From: Shigella phage Sf14
Direction: 5' to 3' (one strand)
Sequence record: MF327003
DNA length: 64,000 nt
Part shown: positions 16,120-58,851 of the stretch, one piece after another
Numbering within the stretch: the first letter of the stretch is position 1
How the letters are laid out: each line of letters starts with the position of its first letter
Notes under the pieces: generated by a model
Database searches by the model: none
Told to the model about the DNA's origin: nothing
What the model saw: only the letters and a program-made list of their open reading frames with translations
Position numbers and translations under genes: made by a program

Positions 16120-16136
16120 GGGGCTACACAGCCCCT
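16120..16136 (+). other. GC hairpin GGGGCTACACAGCCCC between the two tail fibre genes (no T-run)
   Basis: Perfect 6-bp GC stem; same GGGGCT...AGCCCC arms as hairpins at 48213 and 53075. Confidence 0.4.
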
Positions 16137-41903: not shown

Positions 41904-42096
41904 ACGTTTATGGGATGGTTTTGTTGAAGATGCTCCGATGATTGCTCTGGCATTCATGGTTACTAGCCTGTTTACTGATTTAAAACAAGGTGCTCTATTT
42001 GGAGCTATGCTAGTATGGGTTATCTTTGAGATATTAGATATCAAACATGATTTGAGTGGAAAGCTTAAAAAGCTTATTGAAAAGTTTTCTAAGTAG
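41896..42096 (+). CDS. small membrane protein
   Basis: 66 aa, hydrophobic. Confidence 0.3.
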   Translation: MLKRLWDGFVEDAPMIALAFMVTSLFTDLKQGALFGAMLVWVIFEILDIKHDLSGKLKKLIEKFSK

Positions 42097-42106
42097 AATT
42101 AATATA

Positions 42107-42130
42107 AGGGTCTCTTCGGAGACCTTTTTT
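42107..42130 (+). terminator. intrinsic terminator
   Basis: AGGGTCTC-TTCG-GAGACCT followed by TTTTTT. Confidence 0.7.
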
Positions 42131-42145
42131 GCATTAGGAGTCAGA

Positions 42146-44290
42146 ATGGTTAAAGTACAAATTATTAAGAAAGACGGTTCACTGGAAAAACCAAATGTAA
42201 ATAAAATCGTCGAAGCAGTTACCAAGTCAGCTAATAGAGTTGGCTACAAAGAGTTACCACTAGAAGTTATCCATGCTCTTGAATCAGCCTTTATGAGACT
42301 GCTTGTCAGAGCAACTAATCAGAATGCTATGCTCATCTCTGTAGATGATGTTCACAGTATTGTGGAAGGAACTCTGGCAGAGATAAACCATGAAATCTAC
42401 GAGTCATATTCAACCTACAGAAACTATCGTAAAGAGGTTGCACAGAATTGGGATGAACTTTACCAGAAAACTAAAGACACACTCTTCTTAGGTGACCGTG
42501 AGAATGCTAACTTTGACAGTAGCTTAATCTCTACAAAAGGTTCAATCATCCGTGGGTATCTGACAAAAGAAATATTTAAGCAGTATCACTTGACACCAGA
42601 AGAAGCAAGTGCTATTGAAGATGGATTCATTTATATCCATGACTTAAGAGATTTAATCTTCGGTGGTATTAACTGTTGCTTGTTTGACATTGGAAGTGTC
42701 TTGAAAGGTGGTTTTGAAATGTCCGGCATCGAATACTGTGAACCAAAGTCTGTACTTTCAGCTTTACAGGTTATTGGTGACGTTGTACTCTCAGCAACTG
42801 CACAGCAGTTTGGTGGGTTCACTATCCCAGAGATTGACAAGGTTCTTGTGCCATATGCTAAGAAGTCTTTTGAGTATCATCTGGAAAAAGCAAAGCAGTA
42901 TAATATCACAGGGAGAGGTGGTGCATACCACTATGCTAAAGAACAACTTCAGATTGAGCTAACCCAAGGCTTCCAATCTCTGGAAATGAAACTGAATACA
43001 GTTCCTTGCAGCCGTGGTGACTTTGCATTCACAACCTTAACATTTGGTTTACTCGAACCAGATATGGCTAGTGAAGATAACCGCTTGCAATTTATGATTG
43101 CGAAGACTATTCTTGATGTGAGAATGAATGGTCAAGGTAAATCTAAGAAGCCTGTTGTATTCCCTAAACTGGTTTACATCTATGATGAAACAAGACACAT
43201 GTTAGACCCTTGGCAGGGAACTCTTTATGACAAAGCTATTGAGTGCTGTTCTAAAGCTATGTACCCAGACTTCTTAAGTGTTTCTGGTCATGGTTCTGTT
43301 GCAGAAGCTTTTGAGCGTTCAGGTGCAGTCATCTCTCCAATGGGTTGTAGGGCTTTCTTATCTCCATATCATGATGAAGATGGTAAAGAGTTCTACACAG
43401 GGCGAGCAAACATTGGTGCAGTATCTCTCAATCTGCCAATGATTTACAAGTATTCTGAAGAGAATGGTTTAGACTTCTGGACAGAACTTGACAAGTATCT
43501 TGAGATGATTAGAAGCTTCCATAAAAAGCGTTATGAGATGATTGCTAATATGCCAGCAAGTTCTAACCCTCTGGCATTCACACAAGGTGGTTTGTATAAA
43601 GGTCATAAGAAGCCAACTGACAAGATTGGTTGGGATACTGTGAAGTCTTTTACAGCCTCTTTCGGTGTCACTGCATTGGATGAGTTGACAGTCCTTGCAC
43701 AAGGTAAGAGATTACATGAGTCAGACGGTGATATTGCAAGTAAGGTTTTAAACTACCTTAATGGCAAACTGGAGCAGTTTAAACAGGAAGATGGTTTCTT
43801 GTATGCCCTCTATGGTACACCTGCTGAGAGCCTTTGTGGTACGCAATTGAAGCAGTTTAGAAACATGTTTGGAGTTGTTAAAGGTGTATCTGATAAAGAA
43901 TACTTTACAAACAGCTTCCACATGAATGTTGGTGCAGATATTACACCATTTGAAAAGCAAGACTTAGAAGAACCTTTCTTCCATGCTTGTAATGGTGGTC
44001 ATATCCAGTACGTTCGTATTGCTAATCCAGAGAATCATAAAGCTATTAGGGCTTGTGTGACAAGAGGTATGGGTAAAGGTTTCTATCAAGGTGTTAACTT
44101 TGACTTGGCAATCTGTGAGAATTGTGGTCACCGTCCAAGTGCAGATGTTGAGTTGTGTCCTAAGTGTAACTCACATGATATCTCTGTGATTAACCGTGTT
44201 TGTGGATACCTTGGCTGGACTAAGATTAAAGGTACTTCCAGAATGAACGATGCAAAAATTGCTGAGATTCAGGATAGAAAATCTATGTAA
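42146..44290 (+). CDS. nrdD: anaerobic ribonucleoside-triphosphate reductase (class III)
   Basis: C-terminal glycyl-radical motif RVCGYLG preceded by Cys4 zinc site (CENCGH...CPKCN); start moved to ATG 42146 (GGAG RBS) because track start 42056 precedes a terminator. Confidence 0.85.
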   Translation: MVKVQIIKKDGSLEKPNVNKIVEAVTKSANRVGYKELPLEVIHALESAFMRLLVRATNQNAMLISVDDVHSIVEGTLAEINHEIYESYSTYRNYRKEVAQNWDELYQKTKDTLFLGDRENANFDSSLISTKGSIIRGYLTKEIFKQYHLTPEEASAIEDGFIYIHDLRDLIFGGINCCLFDIGSVLKGGFEMSGIEYCEPKSVLSALQVIGDVVLSATAQQFGGFTIPEIDKVLVPYAKKSFEYHLEKAKQYNITGRGGAYHYAKEQLQIELTQGFQSLEMKLNTVPCSRGDFAFTTLTFGLLEPDMASEDNRLQFMIAKTILDVRMNGQGKSKKPVVFPKLVYIYDETRHMLDPWQGTLYDKAIECCSKAMYPDFLSVSGHGSVAEAFERSGAVISPMGCRAFLSPYHDEDGKEFYTGRANIGAVSLNLPMIYKYSEENGLDFWTELDKYLEMIRSFHKKRYEMIANMPASSNPLAFTQGGLYKGHKKPTDKIGWDTVKSFTASFGVTALDELTVLAQGKRLHESDGDIASKVLNYLNGKLEQFKQEDGFLYALYGTPAESLCGTQLKQFRNMFGVVKGVSDKEYFTNSFHMNVGADITPFEKQDLEEPFFHACNGGHIQYVRIANPENHKAIRACVTRGMGKGFYQGVNFDLAICENCGHRPSADVELCPKCNSHDISVINRVCGYLGWTKIKGTSRMNDAKIAEIQDRKSM

Positions 44291-46158: not shown

Positions 46159-46470
46159 ATGGAAAAGATTTATAACACTCGTAAAATTCAGATTGCAATC
46201 CTGTGCCAGTTTATGGCTGATAAACACAATTCACACTATTGTGGTACAGGTTTCCTTATGCAAGGTAGTGGCTACATTAGTTTCAAAGAAGCTGTGAAGA
46301 TGTATAATGAGCACCCTGAAGATGACAAAGAGTTGAAACAACTGAAGCTTACTTATGACAAGAAGCGTAAGAAAATTGTATGCTTGAACAACCTTATCAA
46401 GCCAACTGAAAACGTTTATGATTCAATTGGTGAAGAAGGTTTCTTAAAAGTCTTGAAAATAGCTCAGTAA
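46159..46470 (+). CDS. hypothetical protein
   Basis: 103 aa ORF followed by terminator. Confidence 0.3.
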   Translation: MEKIYNTRKIQIAILCQFMADKHNSHYCGTGFLMQGSGYISFKEAVKMYNEHPEDDKELKQLKLTYDKKRKKIVCLNNLIKPTENVYDSIGEEGFLKVLKIAQ

Positions 46471-46482
46471 ACGTATATGATT

Positions 46483-46510
46483 AGGGAACTGTAAAAGGTT
46501 CCCTTTTTAT
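46483..46510 (+). terminator. intrinsic terminator
   Basis: AGGGAAC...GTTCCCT stem followed by TTTTTATTTT. Confidence 0.7.
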
Positions 46511-46522
46511 TTTGGAGAAATC

Positions 46523-47038
46523 ATGTACCATTCAAATCTGAAACGTGCTGCTGCAATGTCTGTTCTTCGTCTTGATTTTGATGAGCGTCAAGAGTTCATC
46601 GAGTCACATCAGTATGACCCTTCAAATTCTAATCACATGGTGCTTTGGAATCGTGGTAAGTTCCGTGATAGTGCCTTGTTCCAGTACTACCCTCATTACA
46701 CTATTGACAACCTCTATGAATACTGCGTTGTCAAGAACACTATTGCAACCCTTAATAAGCTTTGTAGATATTCTGGAAAGAAAGCTTTCACATTAGGCCA
46801 CCATAAGCCCGTGACAAAAGGTGGAGAGCACCATTGCTCGAACTGGTTTATCCAGACTCAAGAAGATAACCAGAAGCAGGGAGAGAAGCTTCCAGAAGCC
46901 CCTAAGATGACTTGGGAGGAACAGAAAGCATATCTCAAAAATAATATGCCACCAATGCTTGACAGGGAATATGCAGTTCTGGCAATATCACTCTTGTTGA
47001 AGCTTGAGACAGTTTATGAGGCAACTTATCATGGCTAG
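46523..47038 (+). CDS. HNH endonuclease-like protein
   Basis: GHHKPVTKGGEHHCSNW...N resembles HNH core (HH...GG...N). Confidence 0.4.
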   Translation: MYHSNLKRAAAMSVLRLDFDERQEFIESHQYDPSNSNHMVLWNRGKFRDSALFQYYPHYTIDNLYEYCVVKNTIATLNKLCRYSGKKAFTLGHHKPVTKGGEHHCSNWFIQTQEDNQKQGEKLPEAPKMTWEEQKAYLKNNMPPMLDREYAVLAISLLLKLETVYEATYHG

Positions 47039-47309
47039 AGAACAATGGGATATCAAAGAGCTTATTAGCGAAGCTGGAAATGGTAGTGAGATGTATATGA
47101 TACGTGGTCACGTCCCAGATGCACTTGCTATTGAGATGATAGACCACTACTCCAACGGATTCTATAAAGAGTTTGGAGAGCCAAATATTGAACGTACTTG
47201 GACAAAACCAGTACCAGACGGAACAGGAAACTGTTCAGTTATCTACCACATTGTAGACCCAAAGAAATGTAAATCAGCTATGGCTGTAACATTTGTAACT
47301 TTTGACTGA
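47031..47309 (+). CDS. hypothetical protein
   Basis: ATG 47031 overlapping upstream stop; 92 aa. Confidence 0.3.
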   Translation: MAREQWDIKELISEAGNGSEMYMIRGHVPDALAIEMIDHYSNGFYKEFGEPNIERTWTKPVPDGTGNCSVIYHIVDPKKCKSAMAVTFVTFD

Positions 47310-47319
47310 GAGAAATATT

Positions 47320-48201
47320 ATGAAAACTACTATTCGAGTTCTACTTAATTCAAATTCCAAAGGTTCTCATCAAGAGGCCTTCAACATTATCCAGTTCCCT
47401 TCTGGTGAGATTGGTGGTAACTTCTCAGAAGACTTAGTAGACTTTGCTGAACATGCTGCTGGTAAGATTGAAAACGTAATCTTCACAGTACAAGGTTATG
47501 ACAAAGACACACTCTTTGCATTGGCTATGGCTAAAGAGGCTATTGACCGTTTGATTCCTCAGAAAGCAACCATGAAAACTGTTCTTTTTGGATTCTTACC
47601 AAATGCTCGCTATGACCGTCACATGTTTAAAGGCGATTCAGCAGCATTAAAAGTCTTTGCAAATTTGGTAAATGCTATGGAGTTTGATGCAGTATGTGCT
47701 TTAGATACTCACAGCAACGTAGCAGAGAACTTGTTTAAGTGCTTCTATAACCTACCTCAGAAAGAGGCAGCAGTACACTTTGCAAGTGACCCACGTATTG
47801 ATTTCTTAGTGGCTCCAGATGCAGGTGCAGCTAAGAAGACTGAAGAGGCTGCTAAAGAGGTTGACAAGCCGTATATCACAATGGCTAAGGTTCGTAACCT
47901 GAAAACTGGTGAAATCACTGGTATGCGAATCCTTGATGATGTAGACTTAACTGGTAAAACTGTCATGATTCTTGATGATATCTGTGATGGTGGACGTACA
48001 TTTGTAGAGGCTGCAAAGTATCTCCGTGAAGCTGGTGCAAGCCGTGTAGAACTCTATGTAACTCATGGGATTTTCTCGAAAGGTGTTGAAAACCTTCTTG
48101 ACAATGGTATCGACCATATCTACACTACAGACTCACTAGGAAGTGCTAGTTCCCGTGGTCTGAGTCAGTTCTCGCAAGTAACTGTAGCAAACATTGAGTA
48201 A
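47320..48201 (+). CDS. ribose-phosphate pyrophosphokinase-like (PRPP synthetase family) protein
   Basis: PRPP-binding motif MILDDICDGGRT; ATG 47320 with GAGAG RBS. Confidence 0.7.
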   Translation: MKTTIRVLLNSNSKGSHQEAFNIIQFPSGEIGGNFSEDLVDFAEHAAGKIENVIFTVQGYDKDTLFALAMAKEAIDRLIPQKATMKTVLFGFLPNARYDRHMFKGDSAALKVFANLVNAMEFDAVCALDTHSNVAENLFKCFYNLPQKEAAVHFASDPRIDFLVAPDAGAAKKTEEAAKEVDKPYITMAKVRNLKTGEITGMRILDDVDLTGKTVMILDDICDGGRTFVEAAKYLREAGASRVELYVTHGIFSKGVENLLDNGIDHIYTTDSLGSASSRGLSQFSQVTVANIE

Positions 48202-48212
48202 TAAACTTTGAA

Positions 48213-48228
48213 GGGGCTGAAAAGCCCC
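48213..48228 (+). other. GC hairpin GGGGCTGAAAAGCCCC between prs-like and nampt-like genes
   Basis: Identical 16-mer recurs at 53075-53090; no T-run; sits within a promoter-like context (TTGAAG...TATTGA). Confidence 0.45.
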
Positions 48229-48249
48229 ACTATTGAGAGAGATAAAATT

Positions 48250-50076
48250 ATGTCTAAATCAGTTTATGCAGTACCAGCAGGTCTTAATGCCGATGCCTAC
48301 AAAGCTGGCCACATCTACCAGTACCCAAGTGCTACACAGTATCTTATGCTGAACCTTACACCTCGTGGTGATAAGTGGTTTAACACACCACTTGATATTG
48401 ATGGTGTAGTTGCTTTTGGTATTCAACGTTTCGTTAAAGATTACTTAGTAGACCACTGGAATACTACCTTCTTTGAACGAGATAAGAAAGAAGCTGTTGA
48501 CGAAATCTTAGAAATCATGAACGGTGTTCTCGGTGCAGATGCAATTGGTCGTGAGCATTGGGAAGAACTTCACGATTTAGGTTATCTGCCAGTTGAAGTT
48601 TACTCTGTCGAAGAAGGTACAGTGGTTCCGATGCGTGTACCAATGATTATCTTCAAGAACACTGTAGAAGGGTTCCATTGGGTAGCTGGATATCTGGAAG
48701 ATGCTTTCTCTGCTGAGATTTGGAAAGCTTCTACCATTGCAACTATCGCACTACACTACAAACGTATCTGTAAGCAATGGTCTGGCGTAACCTGTGACAA
48801 TGACTTCCACTTACCTTGGCAGTGTCATGACTTTGCAATGCGTGGTATGTCAGGCTTTACAGATGATGCTTTTAACGCTGTAGGTCACCTGACAAGCTTT
48901 AAAGGTACTGATAGCTTCCCTGCTGTCTACACTGCGAAACGTGCTTATGGTCAGTTCATGACAGTAAGTGATATCGGGAACTCCGTACCAGCTACTGAAC
49001 ACTCTGTAATGTGTGCAAACATTTCATGGAATATGAAAGACTTGTCAGAAGAAAATATTCATTCACAGTACATCATGCAGTCTGATGGTTTACTTGATGC
49101 AAAACGTTGGCGTGGCGAGGTTAAAACCTTTGAGCATTTACTGGTAGACGTCTACCCAACTGGTCTTGCAAGTGTTGTATCAGATACTTACAACTTCTGG
49201 CGTACTGTTACACAGATTCTGCCAGAGCTACGTAATGTAATCCTGAATCGTGATGGTAAGTTGGTAATCCGTCCAGACTCTGGAGACCCTGTTCACATTG
49301 TCACAGGTTACAAAGCCATTGAATGGGAAACTGCTAAGTCAATGTTCTATAAGCACATGAAAGAGCTTGCACCGAACAATACACATCTACATGACACAAT
49401 CTTGAATTGTGAAATGTCTGATATTGGCTTTGGATTCTCTGCTTGGCTAATCTCTGAAGGTTATGAGATGGTTGTTGATAAAGAAGATTTTGAATCTGCT
49501 GATACAATCAACCTTATTACTGCTCAGAAGACTGGACAGTTTACTGTGAAGCGTATGCTGACAGCAGAAATTGACGGAGCTATCCACACGCTGTATAACA
49601 TCTTTGGTGGCACTGTTAACTCCAAAGGGTACAAAGTATTGGATGAGCACATTGGGCTAATCTACGGTGATTCTATCACTCTGGAAAGGGCTAATGAGAT
49701 TCTGTCACGTCTTGCTGATAAAGGTTTTGCAAGTTCTAACGTAGTGTTTGGTGTAGGCTCATATACCTATCAGTACCTGACTCGTGACACCTTTGCATTT
49801 GCTGTTAAAGCAACTCTTGCACAGATGGATGGTCAAGAAATTATGCTGGCTAAAGACCCTAAAACTGACAGTGGTCTTAAGAAGTCTGCTTTTGGTGGAG
49901 TTGTCCCTATGTGGGATGGTGACAAGCTAGTAGCTGTAGATGGTTTTGGCTTTGCAGAGTTTGAAGGTGCAATTGACAATTGTCATAGTGCTTTGAAACT
50001 GGTATTTAGTAACTCGCAACCTTATGGTTACGTTAACCTGCGTGATGTTCGAAATACTATTGACAAGCAACTTTAA
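48250..50076 (+). CDS. nadV: nicotinamide phosphoribosyltransferase-like (Nampt/NadV family) protein
   Basis: 609 aa; size and sequence character of Nampt family; adjacent to Prs-like gene. Confidence 0.7.
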   Translation: MSKSVYAVPAGLNADAYKAGHIYQYPSATQYLMLNLTPRGDKWFNTPLDIDGVVAFGIQRFVKDYLVDHWNTTFFERDKKEAVDEILEIMNGVLGADAIGREHWEELHDLGYLPVEVYSVEEGTVVPMRVPMIIFKNTVEGFHWVAGYLEDAFSAEIWKASTIATIALHYKRICKQWSGVTCDNDFHLPWQCHDFAMRGMSGFTDDAFNAVGHLTSFKGTDSFPAVYTAKRAYGQFMTVSDIGNSVPATEHSVMCANISWNMKDLSEENIHSQYIMQSDGLLDAKRWRGEVKTFEHLLVDVYPTGLASVVSDTYNFWRTVTQILPELRNVILNRDGKLVIRPDSGDPVHIVTGYKAIEWETAKSMFYKHMKELAPNNTHLHDTILNCEMSDIGFGFSAWLISEGYEMVVDKEDFESADTINLITAQKTGQFTVKRMLTAEIDGAIHTLYNIFGGTVNSKGYKVLDEHIGLIYGDSITLERANEILSRLADKGFASSNVVFGVGSYTYQYLTRDTFAFAVKATLAQMDGQEIMLAKDPKTDSGLKKSAFGGVVPMWDGDKLVAVDGFGFAEFEGAIDNCHSALKLVFSNSQPYGYVNLRDVRNTIDKQL

Positions 50077-50090
50077 AACAGTATGATAAG

Positions 50091-50112
50091 AGGCTCCTAC
50101 GGGAGCCTTTTT
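50091..50112 (+). terminator. intrinsic terminator
   Basis: AGGCTCC-TAC-GGGAGCCT followed by TTTTTAATTT; near-identical to arms of terminator at 19193. Confidence 0.7.
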
Positions 50113-50129
50113 AATTTGTGGAGATTACT

Positions 50130-50465
50130 ATGAAAATTAAACAGATGAATGTTAATTTAATCATTGAAGAACGTTGGGAAAACATCAAGCGCCATGAAGA
50201 TGGTCATAAGTTTATCAATGAACTGTTTCAAGCAGCACAATCAGAGTTAGCTTCTGAGATTTATACAACGGTTACTTTGAAGGTTTATATCAAAGGTCTT
50301 CCACAGAACCATCAAGAAGCTCTTGATTTGTTTCAAGAAGAATTTTACAATCCAAACAAAAAGATACTTGAGAATAGTTTTGCAGTATCTTCGAGTATTG
50401 TCCATGACAGGAGTTTTGTCCTATTCAGAACTATAGGAGACAAGGTATGCAAGGTTATTGGTTAG
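50130..50465 (+). CDS. hypothetical protein
   Basis: ATG 50130 with GGAG RBS (track ORF begins at GTG 50118). Confidence 0.3.
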   Translation: MKIKQMNVNLIIEERWENIKRHEDGHKFINELFQAAQSELASEIYTTVTLKVYIKGLPQNHQEALDLFQEEFYNPNKKILENSFAVSSSIVHDRSFVLFRTIGDKVCKVIG

Positions 50466-50626
50466 AAATTGTTCTTTCACTCGGTTGTATAGTTGCTATT
50501 GCAGTGTTACTATGCAAGTACTTCTCAGAGACTGAACCTTGTGATGAATGTGAAGGTTCTGGGGTAGTTGGTATAGGGCATTGTTGCCCTTACTGTAATG
50601 GAACTGGAAAGAAATTTAAAAAGTAA
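50447..50626 (+). CDS. small membrane-anchored zinc-ribbon protein (59 aa, below ORF-track cutoff)
   Basis: AGGAGA RBS 6 nt upstream; N-terminal TM helix; two CxxCxGxG motifs (CDECEGSG, CPYCNGTG); read manually. Confidence 0.4.
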   Translation: MQGYWLEIVLSLGCIVAIAVLLCKYFSETEPCDECEGSGVVGIGHCCPYCNGTGKKFKK

Positions 50627-53068: not shown

Positions 53069-53097
53069 TTGACAGGGGCTGAAAAGCCCCTTAGAAT
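53069..53097 (+). promoter_or_regulatory. promoter TTGACA-17-TAGAAT with GC hairpin in spacer
   Basis: TTGACA 53069-53074, spacer is GGGGCTGAAAAGCCCCT, TAGAAT 53092-53097. Confidence 0.5.
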
Positions 53098-57862: not shown

Positions 57863-58055
57863 TTTCTGCACTAAGTGTTCTGTTGAGATGTTTGGAAAAG
57901 ACACAGGGGACTTAAAAGGCCTCTTTACAAAAGCAGAGTTTGAAGCTGGTTCAGCAATGCCAGTAATCTGTGAAGGTTGTGGTGCTTTATGGGTAGACCA
58001 TGAAGGTAACCGAGTTAAACCATCTGAAGATAACGAACGTTGGGAGCATTACTAA
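57855..58055 (+). CDS. small zinc-binding protein
   Basis: CTKC...CEGC cysteine pairs; 66 aa. Confidence 0.3.
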   Translation: MADFCTKCSVEMFGKDTGDLKGLFTKAEFEAGSAMPVICEGCGALWVDHEGNRVKPSEDNERWEHY

Positions 58056-58056
58056 T

Positions 58057-58851
58057 ATGGGTATCGTAAAAATTATTAAAGGTGATATCTTTAAAGACTT
58101 TGATGGTAAGAAATTTGATATCATTGGTCACGGTTGTAACTGCATGAACTTGATGGGTGCAGGTATCGCAGCAACAATTGCCAAACGTTACCCAAAAGCT
58201 TATGAAACTGACGCTGAAGTTTATGCTACAGTAGGTGGTGAAAATCATAACCCTAAGCATCTAATGCTTGGTAACATCTCTGTAGCACGTTTTAAGCAGG
58301 GTCGAATTGCTAACCTTTACACTCAGGTTATCACTGGCAAAGATGCACGATACAACGCCTTAGAAGCAGCTTTACAGCGTCTTAACAACTACTGTAAAGT
58401 TAATCAACTTAAGAAAGTTGGGCTTCCGATGATTGGTGCAGGGATTGGTGGTCTTGATAGCATGGCTGTGCTGTCCATTATCAACCAGACTATGAAGGAT
58501 GTTGACGTTTATATGTATGTCTATGAAGATAAGATGTACAGTCAGTTGACTAGTCCTGTTACTGGTTGGGAGAACTTCAGTGAGCCTCAATACTTTGATG
58601 GTGTTGCTGTGGTAGGCAAGGATAAAGTTACCCTCAAGGTGAAGCGTAATGGCAAGGTACACACCAGTTACCCTCCGGTTGAGAAGTACAATCGAAGTAA
58701 CGCTCAAGTTACCCACCCGTTACAAGGCCACCACCACAGAGCGGTAACGTTTGGCGATGATGCAAGTGTATATATCAATGCGACTACAGAAGAGTTTGCA
58801 GAAGATTATATCACACATGAAAACGTAAACTATGTTGAAGCACGTAACTAA
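58057..58851 (+). CDS. macro domain (ADP-ribose binding/processing) protein
   Basis: IIKGDIF...DIIGHGCNCMNLMGAGIAATI resembles the macro-domain GDIT...NAAN...GGGVAGAI core. Confidence 0.5.
   Translation: MGIVKIIKGDIFKDFDGKKFDIIGHGCNCMNLMGAGIAATIAKRYPKAYETDAEVYATVGGENHNPKHLMLGNISVARFKQGRIANLYTQVITGKDARYNALEAALQRLNNYCKVNQLKKVGLPMIGAGIGGLDSMAVLSIINQTMKDVDVYMYVYEDKMYSQLTSPVTGWENFSEPQYFDGVAVVGKDKVTLKVKRNGKVHTSYPPVEKYNRSNAQVTHPLQGHHHRAVTFGDDASVYINATTEEFAEDYITHENVNYVEARN

Follow-up and report, generated by a model that had tools for sequence, protein, structure and literature searches.

Adjacent Prs-like and Nampt-like genes of Shigella phage Sf14 very probably form a NARP1 (NAD+ reconstitution pathway 1) operon

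Shigella phage Sf14 carries two adjacent genes, one resembling phosphoribosyl pyrophosphate (PRPP) synthetase (Prs) and the other nicotinamide phosphoribosyltransferase (Nampt). Do they encode a classical, PRPP-dependent salvage route, or a pathway that rebuilds NAD+ from ADP-ribose (ADPR) and nicotinamide? The genes lie in a stretch of 64,000 nucleotides (nt) of DNA (record MF327003), the whole of which is referred to here as the window. An earlier interpretation, made without database searches (the sequence-only reading), had placed a Prs-like gene with the motif DDICDGGRT directly upstream of a Nampt-family gene of ~600 amino acids (aa), and had proposed that the two enzymes might rebuild NAD+; it considered that the ADPR and PRPP routes could not be told apart by eye. 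The gene coordinates, the protein lengths (293 and 608 aa) and the profile matches all agree with the first of these claims (Table 1). With tools, the two routes proved separable by homology, and the proposal of a two-enzyme, ADPR-dependent pathway gained the support of orthology, synteny, family signatures and fold. We conclude that the pair is, very probably, a NARP1 operon composed of Adps (ADP-ribose pyrophosphate synthetase) and Namat (nicotinamide ADP-ribose transferase). Its chemistry and counter-defence phenotype are those that we infer from published orthologues.

NARP1 was defined by deletion of genes 79 and 80 of phage Bas63, which encode Adps and Namat (Osterman et al. 2024, bioRxiv 10.1101/2024.02.11.579819). 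The proposed pathway consists of (i) the splitting of NAD+ into ADPR and nicotinamide by host SIR2, TIR or SEFIR effectors, (ii) an Adps reaction in which the β,γ-pyrophosphate of ATP would be transferred to the free ribose of ADPR, yielding ADPR pyrophosphate (ADPR-PP), and (iii) a Namat reaction in which the pyrophosphate of ADPR-PP would be exchanged for nicotinamide, giving NAD+ directly, with no nicotinamide mononucleotide (NMN) intermediate. NAD+ would thus be made only after a defence system has released ADPR, and the pathway would permit replication on hosts carrying SIR2-HerA, DSR1/2, type I Thoeris or SEFIR.

The published evidence for the Bas63 system is genetic and metabolomic. The Δ79-80 mutant forms ~20-fold fewer plaques on SIR2-HerA and no longer restores NAD+; ADPR-PP (m/z 720.010) is seen in vivo only when wild-type Bas63 meets the defence system; and rescue by Bas63 needs neither pncC nor nadR of the host (bioRxiv 10.1101/2024.02.11.579819). 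Rescue without PncC and NadR argues against an NMN-producing Prs/Nampt route. Counter-defence has been demonstrated with deletions in Bas63 and Fado and with knock-ins in SBSphiJ, and 97% of Adps-clade genes adjoin a Namat gene (bioRxiv 10.1101/2024.02.11.579819). In vitro activities have been obtained with the SPβL1, ICP1, DyoEdafos and P. foliorum enzymes, and the activity of Bas63 by in vivo metabolomics.

Table 1. Features of the NARP1 locus and related elements, with their positions in the window.
Feature	Position	Strand	Basis or detail
Terminator-like hairpin and T-run preceding the 171-aa gene	46483-46504		Terminator scan
adps, ADP-ribose pyrophosphate synthetase, Prs-like, 293 aa	47320..48201	+	ATG at 47320, stop codon 48199-48201; 81% identity to Bas63 gp79 and family signatures
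Stem-loop GGGGCTGAAAAGCCCC (GGGGCT-GAAA-AGCCCC), no U-tract	48213..48228	+	6-bp stem, GAAA loop
namat, nicotinamide ADP-ribose transferase, Nampt-like, 608 aa	48250..50076	+	ATG at 48250, stop codon 50074-50076; 74% identity to Bas63 gp80, clamp motif and fold
Smaller Namat insertion, residues ~258-289	49021-49116	+	Absent from crystallised SPβL1 Namat
Lineage-specific ~88-aa Namat insertion domain, residues ~355-442	49312..49575	+	Absent from crystallised SPβL1 Namat
Intrinsic terminator after namat	50088..50111	+	10-bp stem then T-run; folding z -3.9
Poa1p-type macrodomain gene, candidate accessory	58057..58851	+	Pfam Macro 7.9e-8, above cut-off

Two lines of evidence tie the window pair to that of Bas63. 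Firstly, the proteins are orthologous at the identities given in Table 1: the alignment of Adps with Bas63 gp79 is gap-free across 293/293 residues, and that of Namat with gp80 extends over the full length. Secondly, the genomic surroundings correspond. The window runs from structural genes through thymidylate synthase and DHFR, DNA polymerase, primase/helicase, NrdA, NrdB, NrdD and NrdG to the pair, and on to rIIA and rIIB; this overall order is that of Escherichia phage Bas63/JohannRWettstein (Felixounavirus), and the segment NrdD...NrdG...Adps-Namat...rIIA-rIIB is common to the window, Bas63 and Citrobacter phage Michonne. The two systems also share their subfamily (Ounavirinae), gene orientation, an intergenic hairpin, a K-W clamp loop, and a long form of Namat with two insertions, all of which are taken up below; they differ in genus, the window being Mooglevirus-like and Bas63 a Felixounavirus. 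The "nucleotide-metabolism block" in which the sequence-only reading had set the pair holds for the upstream side, where NrdA, NrdB, NrdD and NrdG are encoded; it fits less well in that several small, function-unassigned genes intervene, and in that rIIA and rIIB follow downstream.

The 2.8-kb pair region has nucleotide matches in 256 phage records, headed by Citrobacter phage KMM4 and Shigella phages Sf13, Sf17 and Sf18 (91-92% identity). Citrobacter phages Michonne and Mordin (Mooglevirus, Ounavirinae) share 89% DNA identity with the same region, and by its sequence the window is from a Mooglevirus-like phage of the Ounavirinae. Close relatives of the window, namely Sf13, Michonne, Mordin and Moogle (89-92% DNA identity to the window), are already included in published Tables S1/S2 as carriers of Adps or "Adps-associated" Namat (bioRxiv 10.1101/2024.02.11.579819). 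In Yersinia phage P778 and in Salmonella phage SB18, too, a divergent long-form Namat (45-52% identity) adjoins an Adps-like gene. Published work thus already covers the system, how it operates and its occurrence in this lineage, and the window pair is closest to the Bas63 type system.

The reading that competes most directly with NARP1 is classical salvage: a true PRPP synthetase and a true Nampt would together turn ribose-5-phosphate, ATP and nicotinamide into NMN, leaving host NadR or PncC to finish the job. This is what the Pfam and NCBIfam names of the two proteins imply, and all GenBank relatives are so annotated. For Adps, the matches in question, which like those of Namat are far beyond chance, are to Pfam Pribosyltran (5e-11) and Pribosyl_synth (5e-10), PHROG 619 (2e-98) and TIGR01251 (2e-37). 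TIGR01251 is a broad, subfamily-level Prs model, and the only Prs model whose cut-off the protein passes (128.8 bits against 113). The stricter equivalog and subfamily models are all missed, and widely so (bits/cut-off of 108/296, 99/297, 74/438, 67/536 and 65/518), which speaks against a genuine PRPP synthetase. BLAST scores are higher with four phage Adps (90-138 bits) than with E. coli Prs or human PRPS1 (66-69 bits); a sequence search with Adps of a PDB copy that apparently lacks the ICP1 Adps structures returned PRPP synthetases only.

Where Adps stands between these families was examined in an alignment of the window, Bas63, ICP1 and SPβL1 Adps with E. coli Prs and human PRPS1 (both of the latter sequences being identical to PDB entries; ICP1 residues mapped on the sequence in the supplement of PMC13586617). 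The catalytic core common to both families is intact, as classical salvage would have it: the catalytic lysine is kept as Lys190 (K185 in ICP1, K162 in SPβL1), as are the acceptor and core residues R97, H131, D167, D219, D220 and D223. The DDICDGGRT motif occupies residues 219-227 (DNA 47974-48000) in the PP loop, which reads DDICDGGRTF in the window, DDICDGAASF in ICP1 and DDMIDTGGTL in E. coli. The catalytic β-hairpin, KxRxxxTGxI, is one residue longer in all four Adps. The window protein has no counterpart of the C-terminal PRPS module α11-α12: it stops 22-25 residues short of the E. coli and human C-termini (LAEAIRR...), and the Bas63, ICP1 and SPβL1 Adps likewise end before this point. 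Published work on the Adps family describes the same combination—a retained PRPS catalytic core, a remodelled PP loop and β-hairpin, and loss of the C-terminal α11-α12 regulatory/filament module—and terms the loss of α11-α12 a defining signature of the family (PMC13586617).

Window Adps thus has the fold and the core catalytic residues of E. coli Prs (24% identity) and human PRPS1, but its β-hairpin is a residue longer and the regulatory/filament module is missing; neither this C-terminal module nor a passing score in the stricter models, the marks of a canonical class I Prs, is found. With ICP1 Adps, for which crystal and cryo-EM structures have been published (PMC13586617), it shares the catalytic lysine, the R/H/D acceptor residues, the DDICDG PP loop, the missing α11-α12 and an ATP-lid phenylalanine (F221 in ICP1, F228 in the window). 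The differences from ICP1 lie in overall identity (~31-35%) and in two substitutions, Phe92 to Met102 and Phe223 to Glu230.

Evidence from Namat is equally informative. Its profile matches are to Pfam NAPRTase (PF04095; 5e-31) and NAMPT_N, PHROG 448 (8e-196) and NF006629 (2.5e-137). The last of these is passed with 458 bits against a cut-off of 405, a score that could be claimed for a true Nampt; since window Namat passes it, the model does not separate Namat from Nampt. What does separate them is an adenine "selectivity clamp", made up of a helix motif and a variable loop supplying a stacking residue, that enforces the use of ADPR-PP; the helix signature is GSXΦ1XΦ2XΦ3TRD, in which positions 3 and 7 are aromatic (PMC12774641). 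In the window protein the helix reads GSYTYQYLTRD (residues 503-513), with tyrosine at positions 3 and 7. The equivalent is GSFTYQYNTRD in SPβL1 Namat, GAQTYQRNTRD in the Haemophilus ducreyi Nampt HdNadV and GGALLQKVDRD in a Xanthomonas Nampt; both Nampts compared have non-aromatic residues at the two positions. Across 26/26 aligned homologues the G, S, Y5 and T-R-D of the helix are kept. As regards the loop, the published rule is that its third residue is Arg, Lys or Tyr, and that the fourth residue stacks when the third is Lys or Tyr (PMC12774641). The window loop is TPRGDKWF, with K42-W43 in the pattern seen in Bas63 (S-D-K-W), and from this we infer that it supplies the adenine-stacking residue.

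The remainder of the Namat active site is conserved. The catalytic and NAD+-contact residues D15, Y17, F195, R198, D221, A248, H251, R341, D343, G473 and D474 are all kept, comprising the nicotinamide sandwich, the Asp, the catalytic His and the equivalents of Arg306/Asp308. A PDB sequence search placed SPβL1 Namat (9w5w/9w5x) at the top, with an E-value of 1e-123, ahead of HdNadV (1e-99) and human NAMPT (~1e-39). The AlphaFold2 model (pLDDT 90.9) also has 9w5x as its best fold match, with a target-normalised TM-score of 0.94, such that the SPβL1 Namat crystal structure comes out ahead of every Nampt by sequence as well as by fold. Human NAMPT and H. ducreyi NadV resemble window Namat in fold and core residues, but are only ~22-32% identical to it and lack the aromatic adenine clamp; neither the non-aromatic helix of a canonical Nampt/NadV nor, as in phages, an associated gene for NMN adenylyltransferase (Nmnat) is found here. 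The SPβL1 NARP1 of a Bacillus phage is alike in its two-gene operon, Namat fold, catalytic and NAD+-contact residues, and GS-aromatic-x-Y-x-aromatic-x-TRD clamp helix; it differs in identity (~36% for Namat, 30-33% for Adps) and in the clamp loop, where SPβL1 has Arg40 and the window Lys42-Trp43.

The partner gene also bears on NARP2, a pathway in which Nampt and Nmnat build excess NAD+ from PRPP. A Nampt-family fold is present in the window and NARP2 phages exist, but the partner is Prs-like rather than an Nmnat, no Nmnat is found among the Bas63 genome annotations, the relatives of the pair are classed as "Adps-associated" and not "Nmnat-associated", and the clamp helix carries the Namat motif. 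We regard NARP2 as having next to no chance of being correct. NARP3, which consists of PnuC-like and NadR-like proteins, was rejected on account of its different gene content.

Several observations weigh against the assignment to NARP1. The in vitro biochemistry comes from SPβL1 and ICP1 homologues that are 30-36% identical to the window proteins, and Bas63 Adps did not purify. General family models name the pair PRPP synthetase and nicotinate/nicotinamide phosphoribosyltransferase, and SPβL1 Namat retains some ability to turn PRPP into NMN in vitro. In the window sequences themselves, Φ3 of the clamp motif is Leu, where Asn or Val is usual; Namat contains two insertions not present in the crystallised enzyme; and Phe92 of ICP1 Adps, an ADPR adenine contact, is replaced by Met102. 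The other ICP1 adenine contact, Phe18, is kept as F26, a phenylalanine that is also found in Prs. The position equivalent to Phe92 is E74 in SPβL1 Adps, and because that enzyme is active with a Glu here, the position is variable in the Adps family and non-diagnostic. Every feature of NARP1 membership that can be checked in silico is otherwise present in the pair, the exception being these aromatic contacts to the adenine of ADPR (F26 kept, M102 for Phe92).

The same observations bear on classical salvage, for which the PRPP-to-NMN activity of SPβL1 Namat and the intact catalytic cores of both folds can be cited. Set against them are the Bas63 orthologues, which function in a ΔpncCΔnadR host with ADPR-PP accumulating in vivo; the SPβL1 enzymes, of which Adps gave no PRPP-synthetase product and Namat, when offered both donors, gave NAD+ only; and, in the window proteins, the stricter Prs models missed (for example, 99 against 297 bits and 67 against 536), the absent PRPS regulatory/filament module, and the presence of adenine-clamp aromatics that Nampts lack. 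We consider classical salvage very unlikely, and retain NARP1 as the reading of the pair.

Judged from the alignments, the departure of the window pair from the characterised SPβL1 and ICP1 enzymes is mainly a matter of clamp-loop details and of the two Namat insertions. Crystallised SPβL1 Namat is 490 aa long and contains neither insertion (9w5w, 9w5x). A database search found long-form Namats (~590-610 aa) in Felixounavirus, Mooglevirus and Suspvirus, and in remoter phages of ~85-90 kb that include Yersinia P778, Pectobacterium Arno162 and Salmonella SB18, with identity falling to 41%; enterobacterial forms of ~496 aa are without the large insertion. Bas63 Namat is 593 aa long against 608 aa in the window, where the first insertion is 15 residues longer. 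The larger insertion, which all long-form Namats of Ounavirinae-like phages have in common, is predicted with high confidence, both in context and alone, to be a compact α/β unit. Scanned alone against Pfam, neither insertion gave a match at E-values up to 10; a structure search with the larger one returned no significant neighbours, and the Namat structure paper (PMC12774641) does not mention it. This ~88-aa insertion may serve in regulation or in binding a partner, a role that the crystallised enzyme lacks.

How the two genes are expressed together is a separate question, and one to which the sequence-only reading had an answer: a conserved GC hairpin between them, taken to be consistent with co-expression. 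The hairpin, GGGGCTGAAAAGCCCC, does lie in the 48-nt spacer separating the two genes, which are on the same strand, and folds more stably than shuffled sequences (z -3.4). It is indeed conserved, since Bas63 and Michonne keep it at the same Adps-Namat junction. The window holds further copies: the identical 16-mer is found between rIIA and rIIB (53075-53090), and a variant between two structural genes (16120-16135), giving three GGGGCT-N4-AGCCCC sites where 0.01 would be expected by chance. Each of the three hairpins lies between two genes of like orientation, a few bases beyond the stop codon of the first and immediately ahead of the second's ribosome-binding site. Yersinia phage P778, with an Adps-Namat spacer of just 20 nt, has no hairpin there; in Salmonella phage vB_SenM_SB18 an HNH_3/AP2 homing-endonuclease gene (L005 3493-3990) lies exactly between Adps and Namat, indicating that the intergenic junction tolerates interruption. 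From its distribution, the hairpin is an intercistronic element that recurs in these phages, not a feature of NARP1; given this recurrence, its absence from P778 and its lack of a U-tract, the earlier use of it as evidence for co-expression went too far. Possibly it is an element for mRNA processing or stabilisation. A role as a terminator was rejected: the U-tract is lacking, the terminator scan missed it, and it recurs inside the rIIA-rIIB pair.

The genes adps and namat are nonetheless probably co-transcribed. Their transcript may span four genes (46523..47038, 47031..47309, adps and namat), starting after the upstream terminator-like site and ending at the intrinsic terminator behind namat (Table 1). 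Michonne has annotated terminators at the equivalents of both sites; in the window, the terminator scans were not enriched over shuffles, and a promoter scan was uninformative (17 sites against 11.7 ± 3.1 expected). The first of the four genes (46523-47038) encodes a 171-aa protein with a degenerate HNH-like motif, GHHKPVTKGGEHHCSNWFIQTQEDNQKQG, that belongs to PHROG 3500. This gene may share the NARP1 transcript, because it is located after the terminator-like site. The 171-aa protein is kept two to three genes upstream of Adps in Yersinia P778 and Salmonella SB18 (51-53% identity), phages whose Namats are just 45-52% identical to that of the window.

A further question is whether the window encodes more than the two core enzymes. 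RES-type NADases (aRES) make ADP-ribose-1''-phosphate (ADPR-1''-P), which NARP1 cannot use, and 15% of NARP1 operons hold a Macro-domain phosphatase, Adpp, that repairs it; the resulting arrangement, Adps-Adpp-Namat, is known as NARP1-AP and has been described in Vibrio phage Gary (Osterman et al. 2026 preprint, 10.64898/2026.01.28.702374). Pfam and PHROG scans of the neighbouring open reading frames (ORFs), four upstream and two downstream and so inclusive of two genes either side, detected no Macro domain, and no RyDEP/RyR accessory genes were found within two genes of the pair. By the census definition the pair is therefore plain NARP1, as there is no Macro gene in or beside the operon.

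A macrodomain gene is nevertheless present in the window, 7.9 kb downstream of NARP1. Its ORF extends from 58000 to 58851; the true start is probably at 58057, as in Bas63 gp95, to which the protein is 64% identical. The protein is assigned to PHROG 335 ("phosphatase"; 6e-108), has a C-terminal extension of ~100 aa, and finds as its top PDB match the yeast ADP-ribose-1''-phosphate phosphatase Poa1p. BLAST matches include the Adpps of Vibrio phage Gary (3e-17) and phiAbaA1 (1e-18), and T4 Tk.4/AdfM (2e-19). In a 2025 preprint, T4 Tk.4 was named AdfM and reported to be an anti-DarTG2 factor, with no mention of NARP1 for T4. Assignment to an Adpp-like or an AdfM-like class was attempted and abandoned, since neither the identity values nor a neighbour-joining distance tree, in which T4 Tk.4 nests within the diversity of Adpps, separates the two. 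As a testable lead, the protein is a candidate phosphatase, DNA ADP-ribosylhydrolase, or both.

Could this protein work with NARP1? In an extended pathway of the NARP1-AP type, which would supplement NARP1 rather than replace it, the macrodomain protein would dephosphorylate ADPR-1''-P or free ADPR from adducts, feeding Adps and conferring resistance to aRES. With NARP1-AP the window shares its core of Adps plus Namat, and elsewhere it encodes a homologous macrodomain protein of the Poa1p type. The Macro domain and the Poa1p match point in this direction, as do an identity of 25-36% to five operon-linked Adpps (within the 22-41% that these show to one another), the retention of 14/16 Adpp-invariant columns, and conservation of the gene in Bas63. 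The census, moreover, was confined to two genes either side of NARP1, and its table contains zero Escherichia, Salmonella, Shigella, Citrobacter or Yersinia phages (10.64898/2026.01.28.702374). On the other side of the argument, the gene lies outside the operon and at a distance from it, and carries a C-terminal extension; T4 Tk.4/AdfM is at least as close a relative (40% identity over the aligned region); and PDB matches to ADP-ribosylhydrolases of the TARG1/OARD1 type nearly equal that to Poa1p. On balance we hold such an extended pathway to be improbable. A broader version, in which Ounavirinae-type phages including Bas63 may run an extended NARP1 that the census missed, with both macrodomain supply of ADPR and an added function of the Namat insertion domain, is a little less likely still. 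If it holds true, ADPR supplied by the macrodomain protein, whether from ADPR-1''-P or from ADP-ribosylated targets, would extend protection to NADases of the RES type or tie the pathway in with anti-DarT activity.

Some other genes of the region, and one related locus, deserve mention. Upstream of the pair, nrdD (42056-44290) is a single unbroken ORF in the window, while in Bas63 it consists of two joined pieces around a homing endonuclease. A small conserved DUF7390 protein is encoded at 46159-46470, directly before the upstream terminator-like site, and a small conserved protein of 59 aa at 50447-50626, with CxxCxGxG-like zinc-ribbon motifs and a weak match to the DnaJ central domain. A tRNA scan of the window found zero tRNAs. 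Outside phages, the chromosome of Kosakonia sacchari (L006 3212-6491) carries a Prs-like gene (286 aa) and a Namat-type gene (496 aa) with the motif GSFTYQYNTRD, divergent from a gene for an NrtR-type regulator (NUDIX and WHD_NrtR domains). ADPR is the effector of NrtR regulators, and for this reason the chromosomal pair may be a NARP1-like recycling pathway rather than PRPP-dependent salvage.

For the window itself, the value of these results lies in correct annotation and not in discovery; possible new biology is confined to the Namat insertion domain and a candidate in-trans macrodomain partner. For phages at large, NARP1 accounts for the escape of ~4% of sequenced phages from bacterial defences that drain NAD+, and its recognition corrects the widespread misannotation of the two genes as "ribose-phosphate pyrophosphokinase" and "nicotinamide phosphoribosyltransferase". 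Recognising NARP1 also allows host range to be predicted for strains that carry SIR2, TIR or SEFIR effectors, and is thus relevant to the choice of therapeutic phages against Shigella, E. coli and Citrobacter.

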